From Candidatus Saccharimonadales bacterium (GTDB lineage Bacteria; Patescibacteriota; Saccharimonadia; Saccharimonadales; 2-12-FULL-41-12): a stretch of 46,400 nt of DNA. How positions within the stretch are numbered: the first letter of the stretch is position 1; each line of letters begins with the position of its first letter. The stretch covers positions 1 through 46,400 of the forward strand of contig DASUOI010000030.1 of assembly GCA_036276695.1 (NCBI GenBank). Reading direction: 5' to 3'. A program made the translations under genes and the position numbers. A model generated the notes under the pieces. That model did no database searches and had not been told where the DNA came from. It saw nothing but the letters and a program-made list of their open reading frames with translations. Shown piece by piece: positions 6,026-43,762 of the stretch.

Positions 6026-6445
6026 TTATGGGTGCTTTTGTTTGATTTCTGCCAATCGGGCTTGGAAGTTGCTAGCCTCAGCATTAAATCCTAATATTTT
6101 TAGCGCCTCAATAAGCGTCTCAAGCTCGTCTAGGTTGCTCTCATCTTCTGCGAATTTAGCTTCTATCAAGTCTTCCAGCCATTTTTCTTTATCACCACTG
6201 GCAGTAGCGCTTGGCTTGCCAGGCTTAGGCAGGTCAACGACTTCCAGCGAACGGGCAGAGTTATCTTTCTTCCTTAAGTGTCCTTTTTTTATCAGATTAT
6301 TTACGTGCAAAGCGACCGTCGCTACGGATGAATAGCTACACCCGGACATTATTTCCCGGTAGCTTGGCCCGTAACCATGTTCGGTCACAAACTTTTCTAT
6401 GTATTCAAGCAACTCATATTGTTTTTTGCTCGGCCTCTCAGGCAT
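6026..6445 (-). CDS. LexA-type winged-helix DNA-binding protein lacking the S24 autopeptidase domain
   Basis: The N-terminus 'ELLEYIEKFVTEHGYGPSYREIMSGCSYSSVATVALHVNNLIKKGHLRK...RSLEV' matches the LexA DNA-binding domain. The remaining ~60 aa are acidic and helical, with no Ser/Lys peptidase motifs. The gene overlaps the gtrA stop by 8 nt. Confidence 0.65.
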   Translation of the reverse strand: MPERPSKKQYELLEYIEKFVTEHGYGPSYREIMSGCSYSSVATVALHVNNLIKKGHLRKKDNSARSLEVVDLPKPGKPSATASGDKEKWLEDLIEAKFAEDESNLDELETLIEALKILGFNAEASNFQARLAEIKQKHP

Positions 6446-6914
6446 GATGGCGAATCCTTTTAACAGGTCTCTTATTCACAACCTTTTTGCGTTCCACCCC
6501 CTTGAAAACCCACGCCTTGTACCATATATAGTTCCACACTGTGAAGAAGCCTGAGGCTATAAATTGGCCTATCTCCGGTCCGATACCGACATTCACTAGG
6601 CTTCTTAGAATCAAGTAATTCAAAAGAAAGGCGTTAAGCGCCGTGTAAACGACGTATCTTTGCGTAGCTACCGTCAGCGTTGTCGGACGCTTTGTTTTAA
6701 ACACCCAGTAGCGTTCCAGCAGGAAGTTCAGGGTTATTCCCACTCCGTTGCCTAGGAAGTTCGCCGCGAACAAGCCTATGTGTTCATGGGTGAAGACGAT
6801 TATCAAATATCCGCTCCAGAACCAGACGCCTCCGGCAACCATATATTCGACAATGCGCTTGAGCTCTTTTTGGGCTTTTCTGCCTAGCCAGGTTTTCTTT
6901 TTATTTTTCTTCAT
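6438..6914 (-). CDS. GtrA-family membrane protein (putative polyprenyl-phosphate-sugar translocation component)
   Basis: 158 aa with 4 TM helices. 'YMVAGGVWFWSGYLI', 'FLLERYWVFK' and 'WNYIWYKAWVFK' fit the GtrA-like repeat pattern. Confidence 0.75.
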   Translation of the reverse strand: MKKNKKKTWLGRKAQKELKRIVEYMVAGGVWFWSGYLIIVFTHEHIGLFAANFLGNGVGITLNFLLERYWVFKTKRPTTLTVATQRYVVYTALNAFLLNYLILRSLVNVGIGPEIGQFIASGFFTVWNYIWYKAWVFKGVERKKVVNKRPVKRIRHHA

Positions 6915-6988
6915 GTTTGTTTTTTTGAATGTTTCGACAATTATAACATCACTAGAGTGTTTTAGTTGTTATAATTTAGCCTAGCGGC

Positions 6989-8425
6989 ATGAAAAACAAT
7001 CCACTTCTAATCTACCGTCTTATCCTGATAATCGGCGACTTCATGGCCTTAGTTGCCGCCTTCACCGTTGCTTACACGTTAAGGGTCAAGTACGATGCCA
7101 GACCCCTAATAGAAGAAGTCCCCGCCGAGACATATCAGTACGCCATACTGCTTGTCCTGCCTTTATGGATAATAGTCCACGGCGCTATCGGGCTGTATTC
7201 AAAAAGCGTTATAGAACACCGCTTCTCAGAGCTGGGCAAGCTTGTCCTGGGCTCGTTTTTAGGCATACTCGTAGTCTTAGGCTACGACTTCGTGGAAGAG
7301 GCAGACACATTGTTTCCTGCCCGGCTCGTGGTTGTCTACGGATTATTCTTGGGACTTGGCTTTTTGATAGTCTTCCGTACGCTGGCGCGTCTGATTCGCC
7401 AAGTACTTTTTAAATACGATATCGGGGTTACGAACTTGCTGATAGTCGGCGGCAAGCGCTCGGTAAAAAATACTCTGCCCCAATTCATCGACACTAAAAA
7501 CACCGGCTATAGGGTAATCGGCATAGTCGGCCCGGCGCAGGAGGATTATGATGAAATCCCGGCCTTCCCAAGCATTGCCTCTGCCAGCAAGGAGCTGAAC
7601 GGGCGCAAGGTCCAAAGCATAGTCCAGACCGAGCTTTACAGCGATGAAGACAAAAACAGCGCGCTCTTAGCCTTTGCCCAGCAGAACCACCTGGAATACC
7701 GCTTCATACCGGCTAACAGCGACCTTTACAGCGGTAATATAGAAGTAGAGCTATTCCGGGAGATACCGGTAATCACCGTGCACCAGACCGCTTTAATCGG
7801 CTGGGGACGGGTAATAAAAAGGCTTTTTGACCTCATCTTTGGCAGTTTGTTCTTGGTAATCACCAGCCCCTTGCTTTTGCTAAGCGCTATTCTGCTGAAA
7901 ATCGCCTACCCAAGCGAGTCCATATTTTTCAAACAAACCCGTCTGACCCAATTCAATCGTAAGTTTACAGTGTATAAATTCCGTACCCAGCACCAGAAAT
8001 TCGACGGCACTACGCCTGAAGAGGCGTTTGAGATGATCGGCCGTAAAGACCTGGTAAAAAAATACCGGGACAACGGCGACTACGTGGAAAAAGACCCGCG
8101 CGTAACCAAAATCGGCAATATCCTGCGCATATCCAGTATTGACGAACTGCCCCAGCTTATCAACGTGATAAAGGGCGATATAAGCCTGGTGGGCCCGCGC
8201 GCACTTGTGCCGCACGAGCTGGAAAAATATCCTAGCAAACACCATATCCTGAGCGTTAAATCCGGCATGACAGGCCTAGCCCAAGTTTCCGGCAGGCTGA
8301 ACATAAGCTTTGAAGAGCGCCGGAGGCTGGATCTTTACTATGTACAGAATTGGAGCTTTTTCTTAGACGCCACCATACTTATCAAAACAATAAGAGCCGT
8401 CTTATCCGGCAGCGGAGCAAAGTGA
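6989..8425 (+). CDS. Initiating polyprenyl-phosphate hexose-1-phosphate transferase (WbaP/CpsE-type bacterial sugar transferase)
   Basis: N-terminal TM bundle and central Rossmann-like region. The C-terminal catalytic domain carries '[21 protein letters not shown]', 'YKFRTQ', '[21 protein letters not shown]' and 'GMTGLAQV'. Confidence 0.88.
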
Positions 8426-9513
8426 AGAAAGTAGCAATAGTAACTGACTGGATAATAGGCGGCGGGGCGGAAAACGTAGTTTACGAACTGCACAAGATTT
8501 ATCCTAAAGCCCCTATCTACACCTCCTACTGCAACCAAAAATGGCGCGATAAGCTCCACCCGGCAAAGGTCAAGACTGGTTACCTGCAGTATTGGCCATT
8601 TTCCAAACTGCGCAAGTACATACCTTTCTTGCGGGCTATGTGGTTTTGGCGGCTCAAGCTTAAAGGCTACGACGTAGTCATATCGGTTTCTGGCGCTGAA
8701 GCAAAAGCGGTAAACGTGGCCGACGGGACGCACATCTGCCTGCTGAACGCCCCTACTCACTACTATTGGAGCAAATATAGCGAATATATAAAGAACCCCG
8801 GCTTCGGCAGGTTCAACTTCTTAGCCCGCATAGGCTTAAAGCTTTTTCTCAAGCCTATGCGTAAATGGGATTACCACGCAGCCCAGCTACCGGACCTGCT
8901 TATAGCCAACTCCAACTACACTAAAGGACAAATACAAAAATACTACCAACGAGAATCCGTCGTAATCCACCCTCCGGTTAATACTAAAAAATTCGCCAAG
9001 TTCGCAAAAACAGCAGCCCAAAGATCCGGTTTTGTAGCCGTAGGCCGGCAAACCCCTTATAAAAAGATAGATCTGGCAATAAAAGCCTGCAACAAAAACA
9101 AAAAACCACTGACGGTCATAGGCGAAGGGCCACAAAACCAGTACTTGCAATCAATCGCGCAAGAAAACGTCAAGATTGTCGGCAGCTTAGAATCAATCGA
9201 AGAGCTGGCAGAGATAGTCGGCAGTTCCGAAGCCTTGCTGTTCCCCGGAGTAGACGATTTCGGCATAGTTTCCATTGAAGCTCTGTCTGCCGGAACACCG
9301 GTTATTGCATATAGGGACGGCGGGGCGCTGGATTATATAGAACCAGGCGTGAACGGTGAGTTCTTCGAGCCCCAGACTTCCGCCGATCTAGCCAAAAAAA
9401 TGTCTAGATTTAATATTAAAAAATATACTCAAGATGATATAAAAAACTCCTCTGCTGACTTTTCCATCCAGACTTTCCGCCGAAAAATCACCAGATTGGT
9501 CGATAGCCTGTAG
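8422..9513 (+). CDS. Glycosyltransferase family 4 (GT-B)
   Basis: The GTG start overlaps the upstream TGA (GTGA), and GGAG lies at 8414-8417. 'VAIVTDWIIGGGAENV' is the N-terminal motif. C-terminal 'FPGVDDFGIVSIEALSAGTPVIAYRDGGALDYIEPGVNGEFF' is an EX7E-type motif. Confidence 0.85.
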   Translation: MKKVAIVTDWIIGGGAENVVYELHKIYPKAPIYTSYCNQKWRDKLHPAKVKTGYLQYWPFSKLRKYIPFLRAMWFWRLKLKGYDVVISVSGAEAKAVNVADGTHICLLNAPTHYYWSKYSEYIKNPGFGRFNFLARIGLKLFLKPMRKWDYHAAQLPDLLIANSNYTKGQIQKYYQRESVVIHPPVNTKKFAKFAKTAAQRSGFVAVGRQTPYKKIDLAIKACNKNKKPLTVIGEGPQNQYLQSIAQENVKIVGSLESIEELAEIVGSSEALLFPGVDDFGIVSIEALSAGTPVIAYRDGGALDYIEPGVNGEFFEPQTSADLAKKMSRFNIKKYTQDDIKNSSADFSIQTFRRKITRLVDSL

Positions 9514-9602: not shown

Positions 9603-11429
9603 ATGTGCGGCATAATCGGTTATATCGGTAAGCAAGACACTGCCAAGGACTTCGTCATGGACGGCCTCCGCGCCTTGGAATACCGGGGTTACGACTCCGC
9701 CGGCTTAGCCATCCTCAACGACCAGGACCTTATCTTCAAGCAAAAAGGCCGGGTTGAAGCACTCGCGGATAACATTGCCGACTTTAAGATTAATTCATCA
9801 ATAGGTATCGGCCACACCCGCTGGGCGACCCACGGTTCGCCGACGGATGAAAATGCCCACCCCCACTTCAACAAAGAAAAGACTATTTTCGTAGTACACA
9901 ACGGTATCATCGAAAACTATAGGGAGATAAAAGAAAAACTATCCGCCGAAGGCTATGAGTTCCTGTCCGAGACCGATACGGAAGTCATCCCCCACCTGAT
10001 AGATTTCTACTTAAAGCAATCCGGCGATTTCGCCGCTGCTTTCTCAGCCGCTTTGAATGACCTGGAAGGAGCTTACGCCATATGCGCTATATATAAATCT
10101 CGTCCGGACGTAATGTACGCCGCCAGACTGTCCAGCCCCATCGTGGTGGGCGTTGGCGACGGAGAATATTTTGTAGCTTCAGACCCGAGCGCGCTTATCC
10201 ACAAGACCAAAAAAGTCATTTTCCTGAAAGATTATGAGATAGCCGAAATAACCAAAAATAAAGTCAAAGTCCACAACTTCAAAGAGTTCAGCAAAGCCGT
10301 CAGCGAAGTCGAAGAGCTGGATTACGACGCGGAAGAAACATCCTTAGGCAGATTCCCCAACTACATGCTAAAGGAAATCAACGAAGTCCCCAGCGCCATA
10401 GAAAACGCCATACGAGGACGCATAAAAGCAGATATAAGCACGGTGAAGCTAGGCGGGCTGGATGCCGTCCAGGAACAACTGGAGTTCATAGACCGCATTA
10501 ACATAGTAGCTTGCGGTACTTCCTACTACGCCGGGCTGGTGGGCGAATACCTTATAGAGGAAATCGCCAAGATACCGGTAGAAGTACAGCTAGCCAGTGA
10601 GTTCAAATACCGGCAGGAGCCCTTTTCCCGCGGGACGGCTATAATTGCCATTTCCCAATCCGGCGAAACTGCCGACACCATTTCCGCGCTCAAAAAAGTC
10701 GAAAACTATGGAATCTTAAAGCTAGGTATAGTAAATTCCGTCGGCTCAACAATTGCCCGCATTACAGACGCCGGAGTCTACTGCCACGCCGGACCGGAAC
10801 AATCCGTCGCCAGCACAAAAGCATTCATAGCCCAGGTAACTATCCTGTGTGAAATAGCCTTGAGCCTCTCCAAAGGCCAAAGCAAGCTGTACCAGCCCCT
10901 GCTGGAAGAGCTGGAGAAACTGCCTAAAAAGGCCGAGGCAGTCTTGGCTTTATCCGACGAAATCAAAACCTTAGCCAAAAAATATGCCAATAAGCGGGAT
11001 TTCCTTTACATCGGCCGGGGCTATCTATACCCCTGTGCGCTGGAAGGCGCTCTGAAGCTAAAGGAAATATCATACATCCACGCCGAAGGCTGCAGCGCCG
11101 GCGAGATGAAGCACGGCCCGCTAGCCATGATAGACGAAGACTTTCCGACGGTAGCCTTCACTTGCGACGGACCTTTATTAGAAAAAACTCTGTCTAACAT
11201 AGAAGAAATCAAAGCCAGAAAAGGCCCGGTCATAGCTTTTGCGACCGAAGGCAATAAAAAGATTAAAAGCCTAGCTGACGACGTAGTGTACCTACCAAAT
11301 ACCGTGGAACAGCTCCAGCCTATACTATCCGTGATTGCCGCCCAGCTTTTCGCCTACCATGTGGCTATGGAAAAGGGCTTGGACGTAGACCGGCCCCGCA
11401 ACCTCGCCAAATCCGTCACCGTCGAATAA
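9603..11429 (+). CDS. glmS: Glutamine--fructose-6-phosphate aminotransferase (isomerizing)
   Basis: 'MCGIIGY' N-terminal nucleophile, two SIS domains and the C-terminal 'PRNLAKSVTVE'. Length is 608 aa. Confidence 0.97.
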   Translation: MCGIIGYIGKQDTAKDFVMDGLRALEYRGYDSAGLAILNDQDLIFKQKGRVEALADNIADFKINSSIGIGHTRWATHGSPTDENAHPHFNKEKTIFVVHNGIIENYREIKEKLSAEGYEFLSETDTEVIPHLIDFYLKQSGDFAAAFSAALNDLEGAYAICAIYKSRPDVMYAARLSSPIVVGVGDGEYFVASDPSALIHKTKKVIFLKDYEIAEITKNKVKVHNFKEFSKAVSEVEELDYDAEETSLGRFPNYMLKEINEVPSAIENAIRGRIKADISTVKLGGLDAVQEQLEFIDRINIVACGTSYYAGLVGEYLIEEIAKIPVEVQLASEFKYRQEPFSRGTAIIAISQSGETADTISALKKVENYGILKLGIVNSVGSTIARITDAGVYCHAGPEQSVASTKAFIAQVTILCEIALSLSKGQSKLYQPLLEELEKLPKKAEAVLALSDEIKTLAKKYANKRDFLYIGRGYLYPCALEGALKLKEISYIHAEGCSAGEMKHGPLAMIDEDFPTVAFTCDGPLLEKTLSNIEEIKARKGPVIAFATEGNKKIKSLADDVVYLPNTVEQLQPILSVIAAQLFAYHVAMEKGLDVDRPRNLAKSVTVE

Positions 11430-11452: not shown

Positions 11453-12235
11453 ATGAAAGATTTGTTGGATGACGTTATTAAAATTGCCCGGGAAGCCGGA
11501 AAAGCCATCATTGAAATATATAATTCCGATGAGTTCGAGGTAGAAAATAAAGACGACAAAGGCTACATCTCCCCGCTGACCCAAGCCGACAAAGCTTCTC
11601 ACGAAGTCATCCAGGCAGGCTTATCAAACATCTCAGAGTACCCGATAATCTCCGAAGAAGGGGCGCAGGACTTCCAGACTGCGGACAAATTCTGGTTAGT
11701 TGACCCGATGGATGGTACTAAGGAGTTTATTAGCCGAAACGGCGAATTCACAGTAAATATTGCTCTGGTCGAAAACGGCCAGCCTGTATTAGGGGTGGTC
11801 TATGCACCGGCTTTAAATACCCTCTACGCTTCAGCGGACGGCAAAGCGTTTAAGATTGACTCTAGAGACAACAAAACAGAGCTAAAGCCTGACCCAAGCA
11901 AAAGAGACACACCTAAGATAGTGGTCAGCAGAAACCATAAAGGGGAGCAGCTAGCCGAAATCCTTAGCCAGTTCGGCCCGCATGAGGAAACAGACGTCGG
12001 CTCTTCACTAAAATTCTGTTATCTGGCTGAAGGCAAAGCCCAAGCATACCCCCGGTTCGTACCGACTTATCTTTGGGATACCGCGGCAGCAGACGCCGTG
12101 TTAAGAGCTACCGGCGGACAGATAAGAAGCCTGGACGGCAACAATCTGGTTTACGAACCCGGCGAGAATATAAAAAATCCGTTTTTTATAGCTACAGCAA
12201 GCGGCCAGGAATACTTGTTCGATAAATTCGTTTAG
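11453..12235 (+). CDS. cysQ: 3'(2'),5'-bisphosphate nucleotidase (PAP phosphatase)
   Basis: 'FWLVDPMDGTKEFISRNGEFTVNIALVENGQPVLGVVYAP' and 'GSSLKFCYLAEGKAQAYPRFVPTYLWDTAAADAV' closely follow the E. coli CysQ signature regions. Confidence 0.85.
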   Translation: MKDLLDDVIKIAREAGKAIIEIYNSDEFEVENKDDKGYISPLTQADKASHEVIQAGLSNISEYPIISEEGAQDFQTADKFWLVDPMDGTKEFISRNGEFTVNIALVENGQPVLGVVYAPALNTLYASADGKAFKIDSRDNKTELKPDPSKRDTPKIVVSRNHKGEQLAEILSQFGPHEETDVGSSLKFCYLAEGKAQAYPRFVPTYLWDTAAADAVLRATGGQIRSLDGNNLVYEPGENIKNPFFIATASGQEYLFDKFV

Positions 12236-13605
12236 CTTCGGCCCACGCCTATGAGCTCTAGTCCGGGTTGGGAAGCCTCGTTTGCGTCATAAATGTTCAT
12301 GCAGTCAACCAGCACATTACCGGCCATAGCTGTTTTTAGCTCAGCCAGGTTCATTGACTTAAACTCCGGCCAATCAGTAGCCACAAACACCGCATCAGCG
12401 CCTTTGACCGCGTCTGAAGACGACGAAACGACATTTACCGCATCAGACAAGTCTTCCTTCGCTTCATTATTTGCCTCCGGGTCATATGCGTTCACCACCG
12501 CGCCGGTTTCAGCCAAGATATTAGCAATGCCAACACCTGGGGATTTACGCGCGTCGCTGGTTCCGGCTTTGAACGAAAGCCCTAAGACCGCAATCTTCTT
12601 GTCTTTAAAATCGCCGATTTTGGAGCTAGTTTTGCTAACTATATATTCCGGCATTTGTTTGTTCAGCTCATCCGCCGCTTTCATTATCTGCAAGTCAACG
12701 CCGAATGACTGCGCACTGCTGATAAGACCTTTGACGTCTTTAGGGAAGCATCCGCCTCCATACCCGCGCCCGGCATTTAAAAACGCTCTGCCTATCCTTG
12801 GGTCTGCTCCGGTAGCGTACATAACTTCCTTCACATCCGCCTCCGTCTTATCCGCCAGCTGAGCAATTGAGTTAGCGAAAGATATCTTAAGCGCCAAGAA
12901 CGCGTTAGCAGTGACTTTTATAAGTTCCGCGCTGTCTAAGTTAGTCGCTATATACTCGCCCTTTATTTCCTTTGGTTTAAGACCTGCCAGCTCGGCGATT
13001 GCTTTTTGGTTTTCTTCAACATCCTTATACAGGCCTAGGACTTGCTCTACCGCCTGCTTGTCACTACCGCCTACTACTATCCGATCAAAAAACAGGGTAT
13101 CTAGCACCGCCGTGCCCTCACGCAAAAATTCAGGGTTGGAGGTGTAGGCTACATCTTTGTCTTTGAATACTTCTAGGACTTTCCTGCCTGTTCCTACTGG
13201 AACCGTGCTCTTTTGTATATAGATTGAACCAGGCTTTACGTGCTTGGCGCATTCCTCCGCCGCGGCAAAGACATAGTCCAGGTTGGAGCTTCCATCCGGC
13301 CTGTCCGGCGTCCCCACGCAAGAGAAAACGAACTTACTGTTTGAAACGGCCTCTTCATATGAAGCAGTCGGGATGAGGCTACCGCTGTCTACTGCGTTCT
13401 TTATGAGCGGGTTTATACCTTCTTCATAAAAAAACGACCTGCCCTCCCTTAGTGCCTGCAGGCGGTCATCGCTAATATCCAGCGCATAAACTTTATACCC
13501 GGCATTAGCTAAGATTGCCGAAGTAGTAACTCCGACGTAACCGGTGCCTAATACCGCAACGGTTTTTTGTTCATCAGCCTTAGGGCTCTCCCCGCTATTT
13601 TGCAT
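12232..13605 (-). CDS. ugd: UDP-glucose 6-dehydrogenase (nucleotide-sugar dehydrogenase family)
   Basis: N-terminal 'VAVLGTGYVGVTT' NAD-binding site and catalytic-Cys motif 'GYGGGCFPKDV'. Length is 457 aa. Confidence 0.88.
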   Translation of the reverse strand: MQNSGESPKADEQKTVAVLGTGYVGVTTSAILANAGYKVYALDISDDRLQALREGRSFFYEEGINPLIKNAVDSGSLIPTASYEEAVSNSKFVFSCVGTPDRPDGSSNLDYVFAAAEECAKHVKPGSIYIQKSTVPVGTGRKVLEVFKDKDVAYTSNPEFLREGTAVLDTLFFDRIVVGGSDKQAVEQVLGLYKDVEENQKAIAELAGLKPKEIKGEYIATNLDSAELIKVTANAFLALKISFANSIAQLADKTEADVKEVMYATGADPRIGRAFLNAGRGYGGGCFPKDVKGLISSAQSFGVDLQIMKAADELNKQMPEYIVSKTSSKIGDFKDKKIAVLGLSFKAGTSDARKSPGVGIANILAETGAVVNAYDPEANNEAKEDLSDAVNVVSSSSDAVKGADAVFVATDWPEFKSMNLAELKTAMAGNVLVDCMNIYDANEASQPGLELIGVGRS

Positions 13606-13633
13606 GATTATATATTCAATGAATCCTGTGTAT

Positions 13634-14179: not shown

Positions 14180-14236
14180 TATACTAATTTAGATATGTTC
14201 TAGATAAAATAAAAAGTTAACAAAAGGAGAATACAA

Positions 14237-14554
14237 ATGGAAGCTGTTTTAATATTTGGTGCCTTAGGTGGTGTAGCAAGGGGGCTTGTCGGCTACCTGA
14301 AGCATTTTCAAGCCTACAAAAGCGTTAAGTTCGAGTGGAAATACTTTGGCATGGCAGTCGGCATATCCGCCGCTGTCGGCTTGGCGGTAGTCTGGTCTAT
14401 CGTTGATTCAGGTATTACCTTTGCCGAAGGCGTGGAAGTCAACGCCGGGCTAGCCATGATAATAGGCTATGCCGGCGGGGATGCTATAGAGAATTTATAT
14501 AAGATTATCTTAAAAAAGCCGGTACTAGGAACTTTCGGGGCTAAAAGGAAATAA
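14237..14554 (+). CDS. Small hydrophobic protein (about 3 TM helices), unknown function
   Basis: ATG preceded by AGGAG. The sequence is Gly/Ala-rich and hydrophobic with a basic C-terminus. I recognise no family. Confidence 0.4.
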   Translation: MEAVLIFGALGGVARGLVGYLKHFQAYKSVKFEWKYFGMAVGISAAVGLAVVWSIVDSGITFAEGVEVNAGLAMIIGYAGGDAIENLYKIILKKPVLGTFGAKRK

Positions 14555-16273: not shown

Positions 16274-18359
<2,086 letters not shown>

Positions 18360-28857: not shown

Positions 28858-28861
28858 GCAT

Positions 28862-36366: not shown

Positions 36367-36415
36367 ATATTAATCTTCAAGTCTGAAATTTATCGATTCT
36401 TCCTTATGCGGTCTA

Positions 36416-37288
36416 TTATATTCTATAACCAAAAGTCTCTAACATCTTTCCGGCAATATTATTGAATTCTTGTATTTGTTGTTTATTCAGCTCTTTTTTA
36501 TATTTGCCGATATTGGTTTTGTCAGGCTTCTCAAGGGTTTTTCTTTTCCAGTCGATTGTACTAATCGGTTCATCCTCGTATCTAGCATTATGTATATAAT
36601 ATTCAAACATTCCTTTTTCGAATTCGATTTTTAGAAATGAACATACGTTCTTTAAGGTTTGTTCAGGATGCAATATTAAGTCTTCATATTTAATAAGCAA
36701 ACTTCTATCTCTAGAAAGTTTCTGGATAAAATCTTGTACTCTTTGATTATTAGTTGTCCACTCTTTTGCTATATTATTAATTTTGGTGGGTAATTTAGGC
36801 TTATAAGGCGAATCAGTGCTTATTTTATTTAGAGTAATGTAAGAACATGCGACATCTCTACCGTCCCTCACCATAAAAATAATTTTTGCATTGGGCCATA
36901 TTTTAACTAAGTCGTCTAAGTGATATATAAAATAGTTATTTTTATCGGCAATAATTTTAGAATTTTTACCTCTTCTCATGGCATAGGTTGAGTAAACTAG
37001 TTCAGTTAAGTGAGAATAGTCTTTAGGTTTTTCTTTTAAGATTATCTTTTTAAGTTCTTCAAAATCCAGCTTCCAGTTTTCAATTTTTTTTGATGTTTTA
37101 AGGTCACTTAGAAACTCTTCTACTCTAAATTTTGTATTGCTCAATTTATTCCAATTATTGTATTTATTGGACCACCAATGTAAAAAACCAGACTCTGGTG
37201 GTGCAATAACCTCCGAATGTGAATTAAGCATCAGTCTGAACAAGGAGGTACCAGAACGGGGGTTGCCAATTATAAACACTTTTTGCAT
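36416..37288 (-). CDS. PAPS-dependent sulfotransferase (second copy)
   Basis: 5'-PSB loop 'VFIIGNPRSGTSLFRLML' and 3'-PB motif 'IIFMVRDGRDVACSY'. The gene lies 13 nt downstream of the DegT gene. Confidence 0.8.
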   Translation of the reverse strand: MQKVFIIGNPRSGTSLFRLMLNSHSEVIAPPESGFLHWWSNKYNNWNKLSNTKFRVEEFLSDLKTSKKIENWKLDFEELKKIILKEKPKDYSHLTELVYSTYAMRRGKNSKIIADKNNYFIYHLDDLVKIWPNAKIIFMVRDGRDVACSYITLNKISTDSPYKPKLPTKINNIAKEWTTNNQRVQDFIQKLSRDRSLLIKYEDLILHPEQTLKNVCSFLKIEFEKGMFEYYIHNARYEDEPISTIDWKRKTLEKPDKTNIGKYKKELNKQQIQEFNNIAGKMLETFGYRI

Positions 37289-37301
37289 TATTGCTGCTTT
37301 T

Positions 37302-38387
37302 TCATGATTTCAATATTTCGCAGATTTTATTGATTATACTTTCTTCTAGGTCTTCAAATAAAGGAAGGCATAGGATTTTTTTTGATATGTCTTCGGAAAT
37401 GGGACAATCTTGTACTTTGTCAATATAAGGCAATGTATTTAACGACGGATAAAAATACCTTCTCGGGAATATGTTTTCGTTTTTTAGCTTATTAAGAATA
37501 TCTAGCAATTTTTCTTCACTCTCCAATACGACCGGGTAGTAAGCAAACGTATATTCTGTTTCTTTATTAAGCTTTGGTCTTTGCATCTGATTAGAGATAA
37601 GCTTGTTGTAAATCTCAATTTTTTCTTTTCTTTTCTGTATATTTTCCTCGATGTACTTTAGGTTGCAAAGTCCCATGGCAGCTTGGTACTCGGATGCTTT
37701 TGCATTAATCCCTAATCTATAATGATCGTCTCCAATATGACCAAATTTTTTTATCAATTCTATTTCATCGCTAATTTTTTTATCTTTAGCTATAACACAC
37801 CCGCCCTCTATTGTGTGAAACCTTTTTGTGGAATGAAAACTACATATAGAAATATCCCCGTGACTTAAGAGGGGTTTATTTTTGTACTTAACCCCAAAAG
37901 CGTGCGCCCCATCATAAATAATTTTTAGATTGTGCTTTTTTGCAATTTTATCTATCGCTTCGATGTCACAGGGGTTGCCAAAAACATGTACTGGCAGAAT
38001 TGCTTTGGTTTTTTCGGTAATTGCAGCTTCGATTTTGTCAGAATCGATACAAAGTGTTTCAGGATCTATATCTACATAAACCGGCTTAGCACCCTCCCAA
38101 AGTATGGCTGATGTTGTTGCTACGTAAGAAAATGGGGTGGTAATAACTTCGCCCTCGGTTATATCAAGTGATCTTAGGGCTAACTGCAAAGCTATAGTTC
38201 CATTTGTAACAAAATGGAAATTTTCTACATCTAAATATTCTGAGGCTTCTTTCTCAAATTCTTTTAGAAGTGGTCCATGGTTAGTAAGCTGGTTGTTTTG
38301 CCATATTTTTTTTAGATAAGAATTATATTCCTCTATTGGGGGCAGAAAAGCCTTTGTGACATTGATTCTTTCAGATTTATGATCCAT
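37302..38387 (-). CDS. DegT/DnrJ/EryC1/StrS-family PLP-dependent sugar aminotransferase
   Basis: 'FVTNGTIALQLAL', 'ILPVHVFGNPCD' and 'SFHSTKRFHTIEGGCV' (PLP-Lys) are present. The gene overlaps the wzt stop by 11 nt. Confidence 0.88.
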   Translation of the reverse strand: MDHKSERINVTKAFLPPIEEYNSYLKKIWQNNQLTNHGPLLKEFEKEASEYLDVENFHFVTNGTIALQLALRSLDITEGEVITTPFSYVATTSAILWEGAKPVYVDIDPETLCIDSDKIEAAITEKTKAILPVHVFGNPCDIEAIDKIAKKHNLKIIYDGAHAFGVKYKNKPLLSHGDISICSFHSTKRFHTIEGGCVIAKDKKISDEIELIKKFGHIGDDHYRLGINAKASEYQAAMGLCNLKYIEENIQKRKEKIEIYNKLISNQMQRPKLNKETEYTFAYYPVVLESEEKLLDILNKLKNENIFPRRYFYPSLNTLPYIDKVQDCPISEDISKKILCLPLFEDLEESIINKICEILKS

Positions 38388-39519
38388 ATTCCCACGTATC
38401 CTTAAGTTTTAAAGCGCCTCCCCTTCGATTTTCTTTTCCTTCAACAATAAACATTCTCCTGTCATTTGCTTTAACAACTGCAAGCTGCGAACGGTTGTCT
38501 AAGTTAAACAAGCCGCCTCCTATAGCATAAGTTCCTGGGTTCAATACATTTTTATCAATTGTAAATTCCAAAAGACCTGAATTGCTTAAAGGTTTATTTT
38601 TCGCCGTGCTTATTCCGCCTATATATATCCCGTCTTTCCAGATTGATAGGCTAACAAAACATTTATTTTTTGTACTTTTATATTCAGCACATGCTTTTAA
38701 AATCTCATTATTTTCTTCTTTGATGGAATATTTTATTTTGTTTTTCGTAGAATCATCACTTTTGTCATTATTTGCTTGTTCAATATTATCAATAAGATAA
38801 ACATCCGCGACTTTGTAGGTTTCACCTTCTTTATTAATTTTCCCTTCTTTCAAATATATGGCTCTCGTACAGAAACGCTTGACTTGCTCCATACTATGGG
38901 AGACGAGAACTACAGTACGACCTTTTTGTTTTAGCTCTTCAAAGTAACTAAAACATTTTTCTTGGAAGCTTGAATCCCCCACAGCAAGCACTTCATCTAA
39001 TACTAATATGGGCGAGTCAACCTTAGCTGCTATAGAGAATGCAAGCCTGACCTGCATACCTGAAGAATAGTTTTTGAGCTTCTGGTCCATAAACTTCTCA
39101 ATTTCGGCGAACTCTACAATCTCGTCATACATAGCTTCCATCTCTTGTCTAGAGAATCCAAGCAACGCTCCATTTAGAAATACGTTTTCCCTGCCCGTTA
39201 ACTCAGGATTGAAGCCCACACCTAACTCAATAAACGGTGTGAGCTTACCATTTACTTGTATATTACCTTTGTCAGGAGCATATATGCCCGCTATGAGCTT
39301 TAGCAGCGTGCTCTTACCGCTACCATTTTTACCGACTATACCGAAGAATTCACCTTTTTTAATATCCACAGAAACGTTTTTTAAGACTTCTTGTTTTTCA
39401 TAAGTTCGTTTCTTGCGAAACCCATTAATAAATAAACTTTTAATGGAACCGTGCTTTTCATGAGGCAGCTTAAAAGACTTGCTGACATTATGTACCTTGA
39501 TCGCTATATCCTCACTCAT
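38377..39519 (-). CDS. Polysaccharide/teichoic-acid ABC exporter ATP-binding protein (Wzt/TagH-type) with a ~140-aa C-terminal extension
   Basis: Walker A 'GIVGKNGSGKSTLL', signature 'YSSGMQVRLAFS' and Walker B 'ILVLDEVLAVGD'. The beta-rich C-terminal domain (aa ~240-380) is consistent with a Wzt_C-like glycan-binding module. Confidence 0.85.
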   Translation of the reverse strand: MSEDIAIKVHNVSKSFKLPHEKHGSIKSLFINGFRKKRTYEKQEVLKNVSVDIKKGEFFGIVGKNGSGKSTLLKLIAGIYAPDKGNIQVNGKLTPFIELGVGFNPELTGRENVFLNGALLGFSRQEMEAMYDEIVEFAEIEKFMDQKLKNYSSGMQVRLAFSIAAKVDSPILVLDEVLAVGDSSFQEKCFSYFEELKQKGRTVVLVSHSMEQVKRFCTRAIYLKEGKINKEGETYKVADVYLIDNIEQANNDKSDDSTKNKIKYSIKEENNEILKACAEYKSTKNKCFVSLSIWKDGIYIGGISTAKNKPLSNSGLLEFTIDKNVLNPGTYAIGGGLFNLDNRSQLAVVKANDRRMFIVEGKENRRGGALKLKDTWEYGS

Positions 39520-39520: not shown

Positions 39521-40318
39521 TCAAATATCCTCCGCGAAATTGCCGGCTTGTTTTTTGAAGTAAAGCACTCCGATTACCAACAACACTATAGGTATGGCTA
39601 TAGGTATCAGCCTATAGATGCTTGAGCCGTATACCCCATAAATCGTCAGGGTCTCGTGGGTAACAACAGAATATCTGGCATCTTGGATTGACTGGGCCAT
39701 GGGACTTAATATGAGCACTTTCTGAAAAGCTTCAGGCACTAAATTAAGCGGATAAAGTATGGGCGTGGCATAAAATCCTGCTTGAAGAACAACTTCCCAT
39801 ATGTATTTAACATCCCGGAACTTTACAAAAGCCGTAGCTAAGATAAGCGACATTCCTAAGCCCAGTATGTAAACTTCCAGTAATATTAGAGGAAGCCATA
39901 GAGCTGTTTGTAGCAGATCAATCTTTACTATAATAATAAAAATAAGAACCACTATTAGATTGAAGCCTAGGTTGATGAGTGCAGATATACTACTGGAAAC
40001 GACTATCAACCATCTGGGTATGCGTATTTTTCTAATCAGACTTCCTCTGCTGACAATCGAACCCAGGCTCTGGTTAGTCATGTCGGAAAAGAAAGCCCAA
40101 AGAACAATTCCAAGCAACAAATAGATAGCGAAGTTTGGTATGCCCTGGCCAAGCTTTAAGAATTTATCAAAAACTATATAGAGTACAGAAAATAAAAGAA
40201 GAGGTCTTAGAAGCGACCATAGATAACCAAGAACCGAGCCTTGGTAGCGCAGTTTAAAGTCTGTCCGGACAAGTTCAGCAAGTAATACTCTGCTTTCTTT
40301 TCTTAATGGGTTCGTCAT
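39521..40318 (-). CDS. ABC-2 type polysaccharide exporter permease (Wzm/TagG-type)
   Basis: 265 aa with 6 TM helices. The N-terminus 'LVRTDFKLRYQGSVLGYLWSLLRPLL' is the canonical ABC-2 polysaccharide-permease motif. Confidence 0.88.
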   Translation of the reverse strand: MTNPLRKESRVLLAELVRTDFKLRYQGSVLGYLWSLLRPLLLFSVLYIVFDKFLKLGQGIPNFAIYLLLGIVLWAFFSDMTNQSLGSIVSRGSLIRKIRIPRWLIVVSSSISALINLGFNLIVVLIFIIIVKIDLLQTALWLPLILLEVYILGLGMSLILATAFVKFRDVKYIWEVVLQAGFYATPILYPLNLVPEAFQKVLILSPMAQSIQDARYSVVTHETLTIYGVYGSSIYRLIPIAIPIVLLVIGVLYFKKQAGNFAEDI

Positions 40319-40352
40319 AAAAGTTATTGTTTATTATATGATAGGAAGGATA

Positions 40353-41357
40353 ATGAAACCAAAGATATCTGTAGTTGTAGTTAATTGGAATAATAAAAAA
40401 TTGACTGAACAATGCATAAAATCATTACAAAAACAGCACGTTGATTTAAAAATTATCTTGATAGATAACGGATCTGCCGATGGGTCTGTAGAATACTTAC
40501 AGAAACAATTCCCAAACATCAGGTTGATTGCACAAAAAAAGAACTTAGGTTTTGCTGGCGGGGCGAATGTGGGCATAAAAAATGCCCTCAAAGGCGACGC
40601 TAATTACATAGCTTTGCTCAATAATGACGTTGTTGTGGATAAGAGTTGGTTGCAATCTCTTGTTAATGCAATGGAAGAAGATGACTCCATAGGAGCGGTT
40701 ACGGGAAAACTATTGAACAAAAAAGGCGATAGAGTTGATAATACGGGCGATGAATATTCAGTCTGGGGTTTAACCATACCTAGGGACAGGGGCATAAAAA
40801 TAGACAAGCTAAACAGAGATGATGGCAAGGTTTTTGGAGCATGCGCCGGAGCAGCCTTATACCGAGCCGAAGTTTTTAAAAATATAGGATTGTTTGATGA
40901 AAAGTTCTTTGCGTACTATGAAGACTCTGATTTGAACTTCCGTATGCAGCTGGCCGGATGGGAAACAAAATATCAGCCAAGTGCGGTTGCATACCATGAT
41001 ATCGGCTCTACAAGTAAGAAAATATCGGGTTTTACCACCCTGCAAACTATAAAAAACCAGCCTATGCTGTTTTGGAAAAACGTCCCGTTAGGACTTCTCC
41101 CCACAATGTTCCCGAAGTTTTTCCTTGCGCACAGTATGGTAATTTTAAGCTCTATCTTTAAGGGTCATTTGTTTATAACTGTAAAGGGGGTGTTGCTTTG
41201 CTTTAAAAACACCCCTCATTATTTTTTAGAAAGAAGAAGAATCCAGAAAAGACGCAAAGTTAGCAACGAATATATATGGTCTGTCCTATACCAAGATTTG
41301 CCGCCGGATGCGCGCAGGCTAAGAAGATTTCGCGCTTTTTTTACCGGAAAGAAGTAA
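40353..41357 (+). CDS. GT2 glycosyltransferase (rhamnosyltransferase-like)
   Basis: 'ISVVVVNWNNKKLT', 'IDNGSADGS', 'NLGFAGGAN' and 'FAYYEDSDLNFR' are present. The protein is paralogous in pattern to 30620-31591. An alternative start lies at 40338. Confidence 0.85.
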   Translation: MKPKISVVVVNWNNKKLTEQCIKSLQKQHVDLKIILIDNGSADGSVEYLQKQFPNIRLIAQKKNLGFAGGANVGIKNALKGDANYIALLNNDVVVDKSWLQSLVNAMEEDDSIGAVTGKLLNKKGDRVDNTGDEYSVWGLTIPRDRGIKIDKLNRDDGKVFGACAGAALYRAEVFKNIGLFDEKFFAYYEDSDLNFRMQLAGWETKYQPSAVAYHDIGSTSKKISGFTTLQTIKNQPMLFWKNVPLGLLPTMFPKFFLAHSMVILSSIFKGHLFITVKGVLLCFKNTPHYFLERRRIQKRRKVSNEYIWSVLYQDLPPDARRLRRFRAFFTGKK

Positions 41358-42635
41358 TAAGACTCCGGCAAGCAGCCACCACTGAGCGGCTACGGCCTCG
41401 TTAGACCATGTATGTAGCAGGAGGTTGCTAAAAGTAATCCCTACGAAGCCGGCTACCATTACCCGCCCATAAAAGTCCTGGCGCTGGTAAAGCCTTTTTA
41501 AAATTTTGTACATGAGATACAACAGTAAAAGCAGGCCTAGCAAGCCTATTTCGTAGGCTATCTGCAGGAAGTAATTCTCTGTCAACACCACTTTGTCGGT
41601 TTGGATGGATACTAGGCCGGCAGTGCCGGGCCCATGGCCGATTGGCTGGTTGATTATGGATTTGGCCGTAGCTTGGTAGAAAGCTATTCTTTTCTCGTTC
41701 GGGTCGGCCAGCTGGGTATTCTCGTCCGCGTGGAGTACTACGTTCTGGACTACATAGTTGTCCCTTGCTAAGAAAAAGCTAGCTAGAAACACAGCTATTA
41801 AAATAACGATGTAGAGCCAATGTTTTTTAAGAAATCTTGTTGCTTGGGCTTTGTATTGTAAAAACAAAACCGTCGCTACCGCTAAAACAGCGCCTAGCAA
41901 AGCGCTTCTGGAAAAAGTAAGGAATAGTATAAGACCATGGAGGGCTAACAGCCCGCCGATAAGCATGCGGGCGCTTTTTAGCCTGAACCAAGCGGCTGAT
42001 AAAAGGGTTATAGGTAGGATAAGATAAGCCCCGAGTGAGTTAGGGTCGCGGAGGGTTGAAAAAGCTCTGGGCAAGTCCGGCTTGTCGTCTATGAAAAAGT
42101 TCGGCTTTACACCCCTCTCCACACTATAGCCAAAGTGGGTCAGAATGTCTTTAGGCAAGAACCACTGTAGAAGCGCCAGTAGGCAGACTATTGTGCTGAC
42201 AACTAAAACAATTTTGAAGATTGTTTTAGTTAAGACTTGAGATGTGAGACTTGGGACGTGAGACTTAACTAGGAGGGCTGTGGCGAAGCCGAGTATGAGG
42301 TAGCCGAAAAGCCGGCAATTATAAACGGTTGCTAATAGTGCTGGGTTTTTCTCTATGTCCGGGTTGATGGCCCATATTAGGAAGTGGAAAAGAACATAGA
42401 GTACGCTCAGCCCCGTTATAGCCCAAAAGAATTTGTCTTTAAAGCCGTTTTTTATATAGACCAGCAGGAGCGAAGCCACGACGGCGAAGAAAAGCAGGAC
42501 GTCTTTCCAGGCCTTCCAAACTTCCAGCCCGCCGGTATAGGTGCTGAGCCATTGGCTAAGGAAAATATGGAACGGCATATAGACTAAAAGCGCTAAAAAT
42601 GCCCAATATGGAATACTAAGCAGTTTATTCATCAT
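41319..42635 (-). CDS. O-antigen ligase/polymerase family membrane protein (Wzy_C domain)
   Basis: About 11 TM helices. 'LFLTFSRSALLGAVLAV' is followed by a large loop with 'HADENTQLADPN...GHGPGTAG', the typical Wzy_C pattern. Confidence 0.7.
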   Translation of the reverse strand: MMNKLLSIPYWAFLALLVYMPFHIFLSQWLSTYTGGLEVWKAWKDVLLFFAVVASLLLVYIKNGFKDKFFWAITGLSVLYVLFHFLIWAINPDIEKNPALLATVYNCRLFGYLILGFATALLVKSHVPSLTSQVLTKTIFKIVLVVSTIVCLLALLQWFLPKDILTHFGYSVERGVKPNFFIDDKPDLPRAFSTLRDPNSLGAYLILPITLLSAAWFRLKSARMLIGGLLALHGLILFLTFSRSALLGAVLAVATVLFLQYKAQATRFLKKHWLYIVILIAVFLASFFLARDNYVVQNVVLHADENTQLADPNEKRIAFYQATAKSIINQPIGHGPGTAGLVSIQTDKVVLTENYFLQIAYEIGLLGLLLLLYLMYKILKRLYQRQDFYGRVMVAGFVGITFSNLLLHTWSNEAVAAQWWLLAGVLLLLSGKKSAKSS

Positions 42636-42649
42636 CTATACTATAGACT

Positions 42650-43762
42650 ATGCCGAAAACTATGCCGAAACACATTGTGATAGATGCGCGCAACAGGCGC
42701 TCCAGCACCGGCCGTTATACCGACAGGCTGATTAACAACCTCCAAAATATAGATAAAGAAAACAAATACACCATACTGGTTGAAGCCGGGGATATATGGA
42801 AGCCGAGGAACCAGAACTTCAGAACCCGGACGGCGAACTTCCAGCAGTTTTCCTTCAACCCGGTTGACCAGGTAGCTTTCGCGCACCTGCTGTATTCGCT
42901 CAAGCCGGACGTAGTGCACTTTACTATGACCCAACAACCGGTTTTTTACTTTGGAAACATCATAACTACTACGCATGATCTGACGATGTTCAAATACACC
43001 CGGCCAAGCCGGTTCCCTAAGTGGGTGCATGCGCTTGGCATGGTGTTTTACCGGTTCTTGTTCTGGTGGGGGCATAAGAAGTCTAAGAAAATCATCGTGC
43101 CCAGTAAGTATGTGGCTAAGGAGCTGGCCAAATACCAGCCGTTTACGAAGGATAAGCTGGCCGTAACCTACGAAGCCAGCGACCCGCCGATAAAAGCCAA
43201 GCCAATGGCCGTAAAAGGCGTTATGAAGCCGTTTATCCTGCATGTCGGGGCGCCCTTCCCGCACAAGAACCTGGACAGGCTTATTAGTGCTTTTGATGAG
43301 GTTAAGAAAACCCAACCAAAATTACAGCTCGTTCTGCCGGGGAAGATGAAAAACCAGTTCAAAAAAGATATGGTGCGGTGGATAGACCAAAGCCCTAATG
43401 AGGCAGACATCATAACCCCGGGCTATATGAATGATGCAGAGCTAAAATGGCTTTACACCAATGCGGAGTTATATGTGCTGCCGTCCCTGAGCGAGGGCTT
43501 CGGCCTGCCGGGGCTGGAGGCCATGGCGCACGGCTGTCCTGTCATAGCCAGCGACAACACCTGCCTGCCGGAGGTTTACGGTCAAGGCGCGCTATACTTC
43601 AACCCTCTTGAAACACAGGAAATAGCCACCAATATAGAAAAAGTTCTTATCAGTAAAAAAGTAAAGAAAAAATTAATTATTGCCGGGCAAGCCCAGCTAA
43701 AAAAATATTCCTGGGACAAGCTGGCCCGAGAAACTTTAGCAATATATAGCTCAGCCGATTAA
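42650..43762 (+). CDS. Glycosyltransferase family 4 (GT-B)
   Basis: 'LPSLSEGFGLPGLEAMAHGCPVIASDNTCLPEVYGQGALYFNP' is an EX7E motif. Two in-frame ATGs (42650 and 42662) arise from a 12-nt tandem duplication. Confidence 0.85.
   Translation: MPKTMPKHIVIDARNRRSSTGRYTDRLINNLQNIDKENKYTILVEAGDIWKPRNQNFRTRTANFQQFSFNPVDQVAFAHLLYSLKPDVVHFTMTQQPVFYFGNIITTTHDLTMFKYTRPSRFPKWVHALGMVFYRFLFWWGHKKSKKIIVPSKYVAKELAKYQPFTKDKLAVTYEASDPPIKAKPMAVKGVMKPFILHVGAPFPHKNLDRLISAFDEVKKTQPKLQLVLPGKMKNQFKKDMVRWIDQSPNEADIITPGYMNDAELKWLYTNAELYVLPSLSEGFGLPGLEAMAHGCPVIASDNTCLPEVYGQGALYFNPLETQEIATNIEKVLISKKVKKKLIIAGQAQLKKYSWDKLARETLAIYSSAD

Follow-up and report, generated by a model that had tools for sequence, protein, structure and literature searches.

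A putative composite envelope-glycan locus of a Saccharibacterium with genes for sulfation and pyruvylation

Gram-positive S-layer-glycan (slg) clusters have a published layout in which a WbaP-like initiator, rml genes, a Wzm/Wzt exporter and a Wzy_C protein are combined with a low-GC centre, and O-antigen, capsule and S-layer-glycan loci usually have conserved flanks around a variable centre (PMC2943079). Polysaccharide loci that carry their own genes for 3′-phosphoadenosine 5′-phosphosulfate (PAPS) together with sulfotransferases have been documented in Vibrio, Cobetia and cyanobacteria, and sulfated capsular polysaccharide (CPS) is proven for Vibrio and Cobetia. The CPS of Vibrio KMM 8419 was shown by NMR to be sulfated, and PAPS genes with sulfotransferases in a polysaccharide locus were termed a hallmark of sulfated polysaccharide synthesis (PMC11641403). 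Here, we analyzed a 46,400-nucleotide stretch of Candidatus Saccharimonadales bacterium (the window; assembly GCA_036276695.1, contig DASUOI010000030.1), which contains a glycan locus of ~37 kb at positions 6438–43762. We propose, with moderate confidence, that this Saccharibacterium locus for envelope glycan is composite, a conserved core and an exchanged cassette together making a sulfated, pyruvylated glycan.

Saccharibacteria live attached to other bacteria, and their own surface glycans are almost undescribed. A preprint on type IV pili terms glycosylation in this group "unexplored", and our literature search found no paper linking Saccharibacteria or Patescibacteria with sulfotransferases or sulfated glycans. 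Judging from sequence, the source organism is a Saccharibacterium; the closest relatives of its PAPS synthase belong to 17 Saccharimonadales/Saccharibacteria species genomes (64–84% identity). Across the window, 48 open reading frames (ORFs) were called. The Pfam scan covered the ORFs at 5–44234 and the NCBIfam scan the key ORFs; Pfam negatives for TagF, LCP and Wzx cover called ORFs of ≥100 aa up to 44234, the last three ORFs (44212–46102) lying outside the scan. The loci of relatives, numbered with the prefix L, were viewed at ±10 kb each, not as whole genomes; L049 comes from the complete relative OY970356.1.

Sulfate activation and transfer

An initial annotation had assigned to this DNA genes for glycan initiation, precursor supply, ABC export, sulfation and pyruvylation. 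Pfam and NCBIfam searches recovered every gene family that it named: the WbaP-type initiator, GlmS, the sugar dehydrogenase, RmlABCD, DegT, Wzm/Wzt, the Wzy_C protein, PAPS synthase, CysQ, two sulfotransferases and two pyruvyl transferases. By profile and motif, the genes for sulfation, pyruvylation and uronate supply are real and are embedded in a glycan locus, and the sulfotransferase, pyruvyl-transferase and PAPS-synthase calls, for which a profile search had been set as the check beforehand, all hold. Several enzymes, namely the fused sulfate adenylyltransferase/adenosine 5′-phosphosulfate (APS) kinase, CysQ and the initiating transferase, clear curated equivalog or subfamily cutoffs in NCBIfam. 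The fused PAPS synthase scored 875 bits against NF004040 (cutoff 669) and retains the QTRNPMHRAH, GRDHAG and GLSGAGKST motifs, and CysQ scored 266.6 against TIGR01331 (cutoff 228.8). Both sulfotransferases combine a 5′-phosphosulfate-binding loop (5′-PSB; PPRSGTT in sulfotransferase 1, NPRSGTS in sulfotransferase 2) with an RDGRD 3′-phosphate-binding (3′-PB) motif, and neither has a transmembrane (TM) segment. Sulfotransferase 2 also gave a weak N-terminal match to NoeE (38.5 bits, NCBIfam).

These genes keep similar company in relatives. The PAPS synthase and CysQ genes are adjacent in 15 of the 17 Saccharibacteria loci and, L006 and L009 excepted, lie among genes for the dehydrogenase (Ugd), a GtrB-like family 2 glycosyltransferase (GT2), RmlABCD, GlmS, the core family 4 glycosyltransferase (GT4), WbaP, Wzy_C, GtrA and LexA-type helix-turn-helix (HTH) proteins. 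An iterated HMM search placed a sulfotransferase within 10 kb of the PAPS synthase in 9/11 fully flanked Saccharibacteria loci, and most neighbours are glycan genes. A Pfam census of 121 otherwise unassigned ORFs neighbouring PAPS synthase in relatives returned nine sulfotransferases, eleven GT4s, six LPG_synthase_TM proteins, three TagF-type proteins (PF04464), three Wzx-type flippases and two CitMHS permeases. Since the core is syntenic in many Saccharibacteria genomes, the clustering of these genes is not due to chance; synteny and the proximity of sulfotransferases in relatives together rule out chance co-location.

An assimilatory use of the pathway would predict a PAPS reductase nearby. 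With E. coli CysH as the query, confirmed by its match to PDB 2O8V (555 bits, 244 residues), no CysH homologue was detected in six-frame translations of the window or of any Saccharibacteria locus (±10 kb). The sole match among the fetched loci came from L047, a metagenome-assembled genome (MAG) not labelled Saccharibacteria, in which it lies within 10 kb of the PAPS synthase. The PAPS_reduct and NIR_SIR families were absent from the families shown in the 121-ORF census. The arrangement in which sat-cysC or cysQ adjoins cysH, named in the initial annotation as a sign of assimilation, was therefore found in none of the Saccharibacteria loci. Amino-acid biosynthesis is generally missing in Saccharibacteria (PMC10633639); this, together with the lack of CysH within the ±10 kb viewed per genome, makes an assimilatory role unlikely.

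In L059, a permease of the SLC13/DASS type (12412–14169; CitMHS, TrkA_C and Na_sulph_symp) directly follows CysQ, and an ORF of equal length (585 aa) occupies the same place after CysQ in L061 (1799–3556), its family being known in L059 only. The L059 arrangement likely represents a sulfate importer–CysQ–PAPS synthase unit. The next-nearest group to the PAPS synthase (L014–L046) consists of fused sat-cysC proteins of Rhodobacteraceae and Ectothiorhodospiraceae at ~60–63% identity, which is high across phyla and suggests horizontal transfer. Large DUF7657 + DUF7654 proteins were also seen near PAPS synthase in L011 (230–2263) and L049 (1798–3786).

Layout and predicted pathway

The features of the locus that enter the argument are given below with window coordinates and strand.

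6438–6914 (−): GtrA-family small membrane protein, putative polyprenyl-phosphate-sugar flippase component (PF04138, E 2.6e-14; orthologues in the core of L005 and L012)
6989–8425 (+): large polyprenyl-phosphate hexose-1-phosphate transferase of WbaP/WsaP type, initiator (PF02397 Bac_transf, E 6e-56; PF13727 CoA_binding_3)
8350–9513 (+): core GT4 (PF00534, PF13439)
9603–11429 (+): GlmS, glutamine-fructose-6-phosphate amidotransferase, hexosamine supply (SIS and GATase domains; syntenic in relatives)
11453–12235 (+): CysQ, 3′(2′),5′-bisphosphate nucleotidase, clears the 3′-phosphoadenosine 5′-phosphate (PAP) left by sulfotransfer (TIGR01331)
12232–13605 (−): NDP-sugar 6-dehydrogenase, probable UDP-glucose dehydrogenase, uronate supply (three UDPG_MGDP_dh domains)
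14556–17807 (−): rmlA-rmlD-rmlC-rmlB operon, dTDP-L-rhamnose (PF00483, PF04321, PF00908, PF16363; gene boundaries from the L064 calls)
17865–18359 (+): cytidylyl/adenylyltransferase-family ORF, 164 aa, RfaE domain II-like/TagD-like (PF01467 on the identical contig L064)
18463–19224 (+): HAD-IIB/eukaryotic-PMM-like phosphatase or mutase (PF08282, PF03332, TIGR01484)
19252–20883 (−): fused ATP sulfurylase + APS kinase, PAPS synthase (NF004040)
20931–21875 (+): GtrB-like GT2, polyprenyl-phosphate sugar synthase, two TM helices at the C terminus (PF00535)
21912–25239 (−): pyruvyl transferase 1, LPG_synthase_TM (flippase-like) and nitroreductase-family triad (PF04230, E 4.5e-36; PF03706; PF00881)
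25269–26075 (+): sulfotransferase 1, cytoplasmic (PF13469 Sulfotransfer_3, E 1.2e-29)
26108–28252 (+): membrane glycosyltransferase with predicted GT-C fold, 714 aa, C-terminal extracytoplasmic domain
30620–31591 (+): GT2 (PF00535, E 1e-24)
31588–32796 (+): GT4, in-frame TAG at 32374–32376, probable pseudogene (PF13439 and PF00534 in separate ORFs)
33700–34626 (−): GT2 (PF00535, E 9e-35)
34633–35463 (+): pyruvyl transferase 2, short form (PF04230, E 1.8e-14)
35506–38387 (−): triad of DegT (4-aminotransferase type, 37302–38387), sulfotransferase 2 (36416–37288) and GT2 (PF01041, E 1.7e-93; PF13469, E 3.7e-36; PF00535)
38377–39519 (−): Wzt ABC ATPase (ABC_tran, PF00005) with C-terminal carbohydrate-binding domain (aa ~240–380)
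39521–40318 (−): Wzm ABC-2 permease, six TM segments (ABC2_membrane, PF01061)
40338–41357 (+): GT2, weakly rhamnosyltransferase-like (PF00535, E 7e-28)
41319–42635 (−): Wzy_C-family membrane protein of the O-antigen-ligase/O-oligosaccharyltransferase family (PF04932, E 2.7e-13)
42650–43762 (+): GT4 (PF00534, E 2e-30; 62% identical in L065)

Third-position GC content (GC3) is 0.46–0.61 in the core genes (6.4–20.9 kb) and 0.54–0.62 at the right edge, and falls to 0.29–0.45 at 20.9–41.3 kb, with a minimum of 0.29–0.31 at DegT/sulfotransferase 2/GT2. Broad synteny across relatives is limited to the core; the part at 35.5–43.7 kb is common to one other contig, L065, at 44–77% protein identity. Composition and synteny suggest that the locus, earlier proposed to be one contiguous super-locus, is better described as a clade-conserved core with a low-GC, horizontally exchanged variable cassette at ~20.9–41.3 kb. 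In L065, an inserted PIN/PhdYeFM toxin-antitoxin pair (3111–3763) separates the GT4 gene from the Wzy_C gene, which fits with this portion of the locus being mobile.

Most likely, the locus would make a lipid-linked heteropolysaccharide to which sulfate and pyruvate are added in the cytoplasm. In the order of steps that we infer, the WbaP-type enzyme would first prime undecaprenyl phosphate. This enzyme scored 336 bits against TIGR03025 (cutoff 296), has five predicted TM segments and a DELPQ motif, and is the only initiating transferase in the window; orthologues of the adjoining core GT4 (39–49% identical) also adjoin WbaP in L005, L008, L012, L049, L054 and L059.

Cytoplasmic GT4 and GT2 enzymes would then build the heteropolysaccharide from dTDP-rhamnose, UDP-uronate, hexosamine and a 4-amino-4,6-dideoxyhexose made by DegT, which the RmlB product would also feed. 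About nine GT2/GT4 enzymes had been counted before; the families were right, and the number is eight, with five GT2s (the GtrB-like enzyme included) and three GT4s, one of them split by a TAG codon. The NDP-sugar dehydrogenase passes TIGR03026 only, scoring 349 against the TuaD equivalog cutoff of 700. Between rmlB and the HAD/PMM-like gene lies the ORF at 17865–18359, absent from the initial annotation, which scored below cutoff against TIGR02199 (81 bits) and TIGR01518 (45 bits) and passed the TIGR00125 domain model; it could supply an NDP-heptose or CDP-glycerol-type donor. In the split GT4, the N-terminal (PF13439) and C-terminal (PF00534) domains occupy separate ORFs in the same frame, the TAG standing directly before an A8 run. 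The gene is probably a pseudogene, but the break could also stem from polymorphism among strains or from an error in sequencing. Saccharibacteria use the standard genetic code, so recoding of TAG is a less simple account than a nonsense mutation or a sequencing error.

Next, two soluble sulfotransferases would add sulfate and two soluble pyruvyl transferases would add pyruvate ketals to the chain at the cytoplasmic face. PAPS would come from the fused sat-cysC enzyme, and CysQ would recycle the PAP by-product. The pyruvyl transferases, like the sulfotransferases, have no TM segments, which suggests that all four act in the cytoplasm, where PAPS and phosphoenolpyruvate are available. Pyruvyl transferase 1 resembles WcaK and CsaB and scores below their cutoffs (NCBIfam); its trio with the LPG_synthase_TM and nitroreductase genes recurs next to PAPS synthase in L011, at 43–55% identity. 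Pyruvyl transferase 2 has a 266-aa orthologue in L065 (45% identity).

Sulfotransferase 2 has more than 1000 relatives, many of them 290 aa long and 50–60% identical, and its DegT–sulfotransferase–GT2 order is also found in L065, L067 (Draconibacterium, of the Bacteroidota) and L068 (Balneola), with ORFs that abut or overlap. L066 (28.6% GC) has the sulfotransferase after DegT, and upstream of this pair lie CysQ, APS kinase, another sulfotransferase and Wzm/Wzt. The triad recurs in polysaccharide loci of distant taxa that also carry CysQ and APS kinase, and it is kept where the export route differs (Wzx or Wzm/Wzt). DegT is closest to DesI-type 4-aminotransferases acting on the RmlB product (NCBIfam), and we infer that the triad is a module making and transferring a sulfated 4-amino-4,6-dideoxyhexose, N- or O-sulfated.

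The finished lipid-linked chain would be exported by Wzm/Wzt, with the Wzt C-domain reading a chain-end cap. The nucleotide-binding domain of Wzt has Aquifex aeolicus Wzt as its best PDB match (1e-62). Its C-domain of 140 residues has no sequence-level match to Pfam or the PDB and was matched by fold only: the AF2 model (pLDDT 83.6) gave as top Foldseek matches the A. aeolicus Wzt carbohydrate-binding domain (CBD) structures 8DKY and 8DL0 (TM-score 0.61, rmsd 3.6 Å). In an exhaustive HMMER search the sequence family was rare, with 22 representatives among 1.84 billion, and a word-indexed homologue search with the C-domain alone as the query returned nothing. On its modelled fold, the C-domain is a new sequence family of Wzt carbohydrate-binding domains, which would assign the exporter to the subclass dependent on a chain-end cap. 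No methyltransferase or kinase that could serve as a chain terminator was found in the Pfam scan of the window ORFs; by inference, the sulfotransferases, the pyruvyl transferases or the DegT–sulfotransferase–GT2 triad are candidate terminators. Six further copies of this C-domain family lie within P0164, a giant protein (4514 aa; residues ~3893–3963 and five more stretches), and this suggests that the fold may be reused as a glycan-binding or adhesion module.

Sulfotransferase 2 sits where an N-acyltransferase normally sits, which leads to a bolder reading: the sugar that the triad produces and transfers would be a 4-amino-4,6-dideoxyhexose, either N-sulfated (sulfamido) or O-sulfated, it would end the chain as the cap that the Wzt CBD reads, and this soil Saccharibacteria clade would keep a PAPS pathway only to sulfate its surface glycan. 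We regard this as improbable. If it were true, sulfate would be a length-control and export signal and would also form the chemistry by which an epibiont contacts its host.

The glycan, once outside the membrane, would be passed to an acceptor by the Wzy_C-family protein. This protein, which adjoins WbaP in L005, L049 and L054, has no PDB sequence match, and its best NCBIfam match was only HpsL (28 bits). The scanned window ORFs gave no match to an S-layer, SLH or pilin family, and since no acceptor protein gene is evident, attachment to protein, lipid or wall are all possible; a lipid or a surface protein of S-layer or pilin type seems a more likely acceptor than peptidoglycan.

Finally, the GtrB-like synthase, GtrA and the GT-C enzyme would add side-chain sugars from a polyprenyl-phosphate sugar. 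The GtrB-like GT2 is 60–84% identical in the closest relatives; its best NCBIfam matches are AglJ, PpgS, PgfS and ArnC, and its TM segments begin at residues 231 and 264. Pfam gave no match to the 714-aa membrane protein, and neither single-sequence nor profile searches found one in the PDB. Homologues of this protein carry PF13231, it has an invariant RDP motif at 106–108, and all 16 significant Foldseek matches of its AF2 model (pLDDT 83, pTM 0.88) were STT3, PglB, DPY19, AftA or ALG9 (TM-score 0.37–0.46). This modelled GT-C fold indicates that the triad is real, and the set first described as GtrA, GtrB-like and GT-C-like is borne out by PF04138, the two-TM GT2, and PF13231 in homologues together with the Foldseek matches.

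Several observations weigh against the proposed pathway. Sulfate on a Saccharibacteria glycan is predicted here from genes, and our view of the genome is the 46-kb window, so that an LCP ligase, Wzx, TagF or cysH may sit elsewhere. Sulfotransferase 2 has as its best solved relatives the CurM sulfotransferase domain (2.8e-16) and TPST1/2 (~1e-14), which are not carbohydrate sulfotransferases. The scanned window ORFs hold no sulfate uptake system, the GT4 at 31588–32796 is broken by a stop codon, and the Wzy_C protein could be a polymerase instead of a ligase. In relatives, L006 and L009 carry the PAPS synthase amid housekeeping genes, and the census found Wzx-type flippases near PAPS synthase in some loci. 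The locus may also encode more than one product.

Alternative explanations and neighbouring genes

A doubtful but possible alternative is that two or more pathways lie side by side: a conserved WbaP/GT4/Wzy_C glycan and an acquired, ABC-exported sulfated polymer, with GtrB/GT-C serving either of them or protein glycosylation. The GC3 drop from core to cassette, the restriction of synteny to the core, the sharing of the right half of the cassette with L065 and of the DegT–sulfotransferase pair with distant taxa, and the pairing of the same core with Wzx-type flippases in relatives all agree with this idea, as do the best structural matches to the GT-C enzyme, which are glycosyltransferases acting on proteins. 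However, a conserved flank with a variable centre is normal for single O-antigen, CPS and slg loci (PMC2943079), and the window holds one initiating transferase only. Moreover, the PAPS genes lie in the core whereas both sulfotransferases of the window lie in the cassette, which points to a functional link between the two parts.

We consider it unlikely that the locus makes a streptococcal-type, peptidoglycan-anchored rhamnan, charged by sulfate, pyruvate and uronate as a phosphate-free substitute for teichoic acid. The initial annotation had drawn this likeness from rmlABCD, Wzm/Wzt and the GtrA/GtrB-like/GT-C set, all of which are present, and had noted that TagF, LCP and Wzx were missing. 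That observation stands on the ORFs scanned up to 44234, where TagF (PF04464), LCP, Wzx and Polysacc_synt/MATE gave no match, with a flippase-like LPG_synthase_TM protein present; nor was a GacH-type gene found in the window. The comparison itself is not supported, because the initiator is of WbaP type and not of GacO/WecA type, a Wzy_C protein is present and the scanned ORFs include no LCP ligase. The rhamnosyltransferase-like GT2s are such only below threshold: the GT2 at 40338–41357, with the best score in the locus against the TIGR01556 rhamnosyltransferase model, reached 80 bits, far under the cutoff of 200. The idea of a phosphate-free polymer is further weakened by the cytidylyltransferase (CTP_transf_like) ORF inside the locus and by three TagF-type ORFs (PF04464) that relatives carry no more than 10 kb from this PAPS synthase, found in the census and not recovered by a scan of ten large ORFs. 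Sulfation and glycerophosphate polymers therefore do not appear to be alternatives in this clade.

Very little probability attaches to a third possibility, that the sulfation enzymes have protein tyrosines, a lipid or a small molecule as their target, their genes being only neighbours of those for the glycan. The Sulfotransfer_3 family is functionally broad, and the solved relatives of sulfotransferase 2 include a polyketide sulfotransferase (CurM) as well as TPST1/2. However, the tightly packed DegT–sulfotransferase–GT2 order recurs in polysaccharide loci of four taxa, a sulfotransferase lies near PAPS synthase within glycan genes in 9/11 loci, and the Pfam scan found no polyketide synthase, peptide-precursor or lipid-synthesis gene in the window. 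It is scarcely credible that sat-cysC and cysQ serve assimilatory sulfate reduction and sit here incidentally: the nearest homologues outside the Candidate Phyla Radiation (CPR) come from Rhodobacteraceae and Ectothiorhodospiraceae, which are expected to assimilate sulfate, and L047 has its CysH homologue within 10 kb, but the window and all Saccharibacteria loci lack CysH, the census showed no PAPS_reduct or NIR_SIR, Saccharibacteria generally do not synthesize amino acids, and sulfotransferases are adjacent instead.

Some genes in the interval have no evident part in glycan synthesis: a staphylococcal nuclease (SNase) homologue, a small membrane protein, three proteins that are secreted or unknown, and the nitroreductase and LPG_synthase_TM genes listed above. 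These and one flanking gene are as follows.

6026–6445 (−): LexA-type HTH protein, DNA-binding domain only, possible regulator (PF01726, E 2.5e-13; outside the interval of the initial annotation)
13634–14554: secreted staphylococcal-nuclease homologue and small two-TM protein, interrupting the sugar-precursor genes
28270–30574 (+): two secreted/anchored proteins of 195 and 570 aa, without family (no Pfam match)
32786–33637: third secreted protein, without family assignment

The LexA-type protein, which lacks the S24 peptidase domain, adjoins the GtrA/Wzy_C/WbaP core also in L049 (20700–21155) and L005 (~21218–21352) and may regulate the locus. An SNase homologue directly follows PAPS synthase in the Paceibacteria MAG L062 (11738–12469) as well. 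The secreted pair at 28270–30574, of which the 570-aa protein has no meaningful PDB match, has homologues near the locus in L004, L007, L008, L011, L049, L054, L059 and L065, reaching 840 aa in relatives; in L065, a gene overlapping the region homologous to the pair carries DUF5648. Between the last GT4 and jag-yidC-rnpA, the ORF at 43791–44234 encodes a 147-aa protein whose N-terminal half is rich in N, Q, S and T, with a single TM helix and a poly-lysine tail; that it is a glycosylation substrate is pure speculation. Two long ORFs overlap on opposite strands at 1667–2290 (−) and 1703–2344 (+). Only the plus-strand ORF has a family (DsbA-like thioredoxin, E 6e-30), and the minus-strand ORF is therefore probably spurious.

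Returning to the composite sulfated-glycan locus that we favour, PAPS is costly in ATP, and if the cell has no other use for it, as the general lack of amino-acid biosynthesis suggests, the conservation of a sulfation module within the glycan locus would imply that a sulfated surface matters for the saccharibacterial lifestyle, with possible roles in adhesion, charge, phage evasion or host evasion. The analysis also flags a widespread, uncharacterised DegT–sulfotransferase–GT2 module and a putative new sequence family of Wzt carbohydrate-binding domains, both of which are open to biochemistry without cultivation.

Comparison with known systems

Rhizobia couple dedicated PAPS synthesis to carbohydrate sulfotransferases for a host-interaction glycan, as in NodPQ with NodH, and LpsS. 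Their targets are Nod factors or diderm lipopolysaccharide, and their enzymes are not orthologous to those described here and belong to another type of locus. Closer in gene content are the CPS loci of Vibrio sp. KMM 8419 and Cobetia marina and the synechan locus xss of Synechocystis, which, like this locus, have their own sulfate-activation genes and sulfotransferases (PMC11641403; PMC8205485). The Vibrio locus also shares rml genes and an ABC exporter, and its product contains sulfated rhamnose (PMC11641403). However, the Vibrio, Cobetia and cyanobacterial hosts are diderms that assimilate sulfate and carry second cysDNC copies, and Vibrio exports its polymer by KpsMT-type capsule machinery. 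The present locus has a fused sat-cysC, a reduced-genome monoderm host probably without other use of PAPS, Wzm/Wzt with a CBD, and a Wzy_C protein.

The nucleotide-binding domain and C-domain fold of Wzt resemble those of ABC-exported O antigens that rely on a Wzt CBD (E. coli O9a; A. aeolicus WzmWzt, 8DKY/8DL0). In contrast to these systems, the locus has no methyltransferase or kinase terminator, its monoderm host lacks a lipid A-core acceptor, and its C-domain has no sequence match. The streptococcal gac, rgp and SCC loci share with it the rml genes, an ABC-2 exporter, and extracytoplasmic addition of side chains by a GT-C enzyme working with a GtrB-like synthase and a GtrA-type protein. 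Their GacO/WecA-type GlcNAc-1-phosphate initiator, which could be encoded elsewhere in the genome, attachment by an LCP ligase and glycerol-phosphate transferase GacH were all three missing from the window, whereas the Wzy_C, sulfation and pyruvylation genes have no streptococcal counterpart. The streptococcal analogy thus fails on the type of initiator, the LCP ligase and clear rhamnosyltransferases.

The slg clusters of Geobacillus stearothermophilus NRS 2004/3a (wsa) and Paenibacillus alvei (wsf) agree with the locus in their WbaP-like initiator (WsaP), rmlABCD, Wzm/Wzt, GT2/GT4 enzymes of putative rhamnosyltransferase type, Wzy_C-domain protein (the transferase WsaB in slg clusters), low-GC central region and monoderm host, and there too Wzt has been proposed to read a chain-end cap (PMC2943079). 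They differ in that no recognisable S-layer protein gene lies beside this locus, and in that they lack sulfation and pyruvylation genes and use 2-O-methyl as the cap, whereas this locus adds the GtrA/GtrB/GT-C set and a PAPS supply. Because it combines a WbaP-type initiator with a Wzy_C protein and has no LCP ligase in the window, the locus appears, by analogy, to fit the logic of Gram-positive S-layer-glycan or O-antigen loci better than that of a streptococcal rhamnan.

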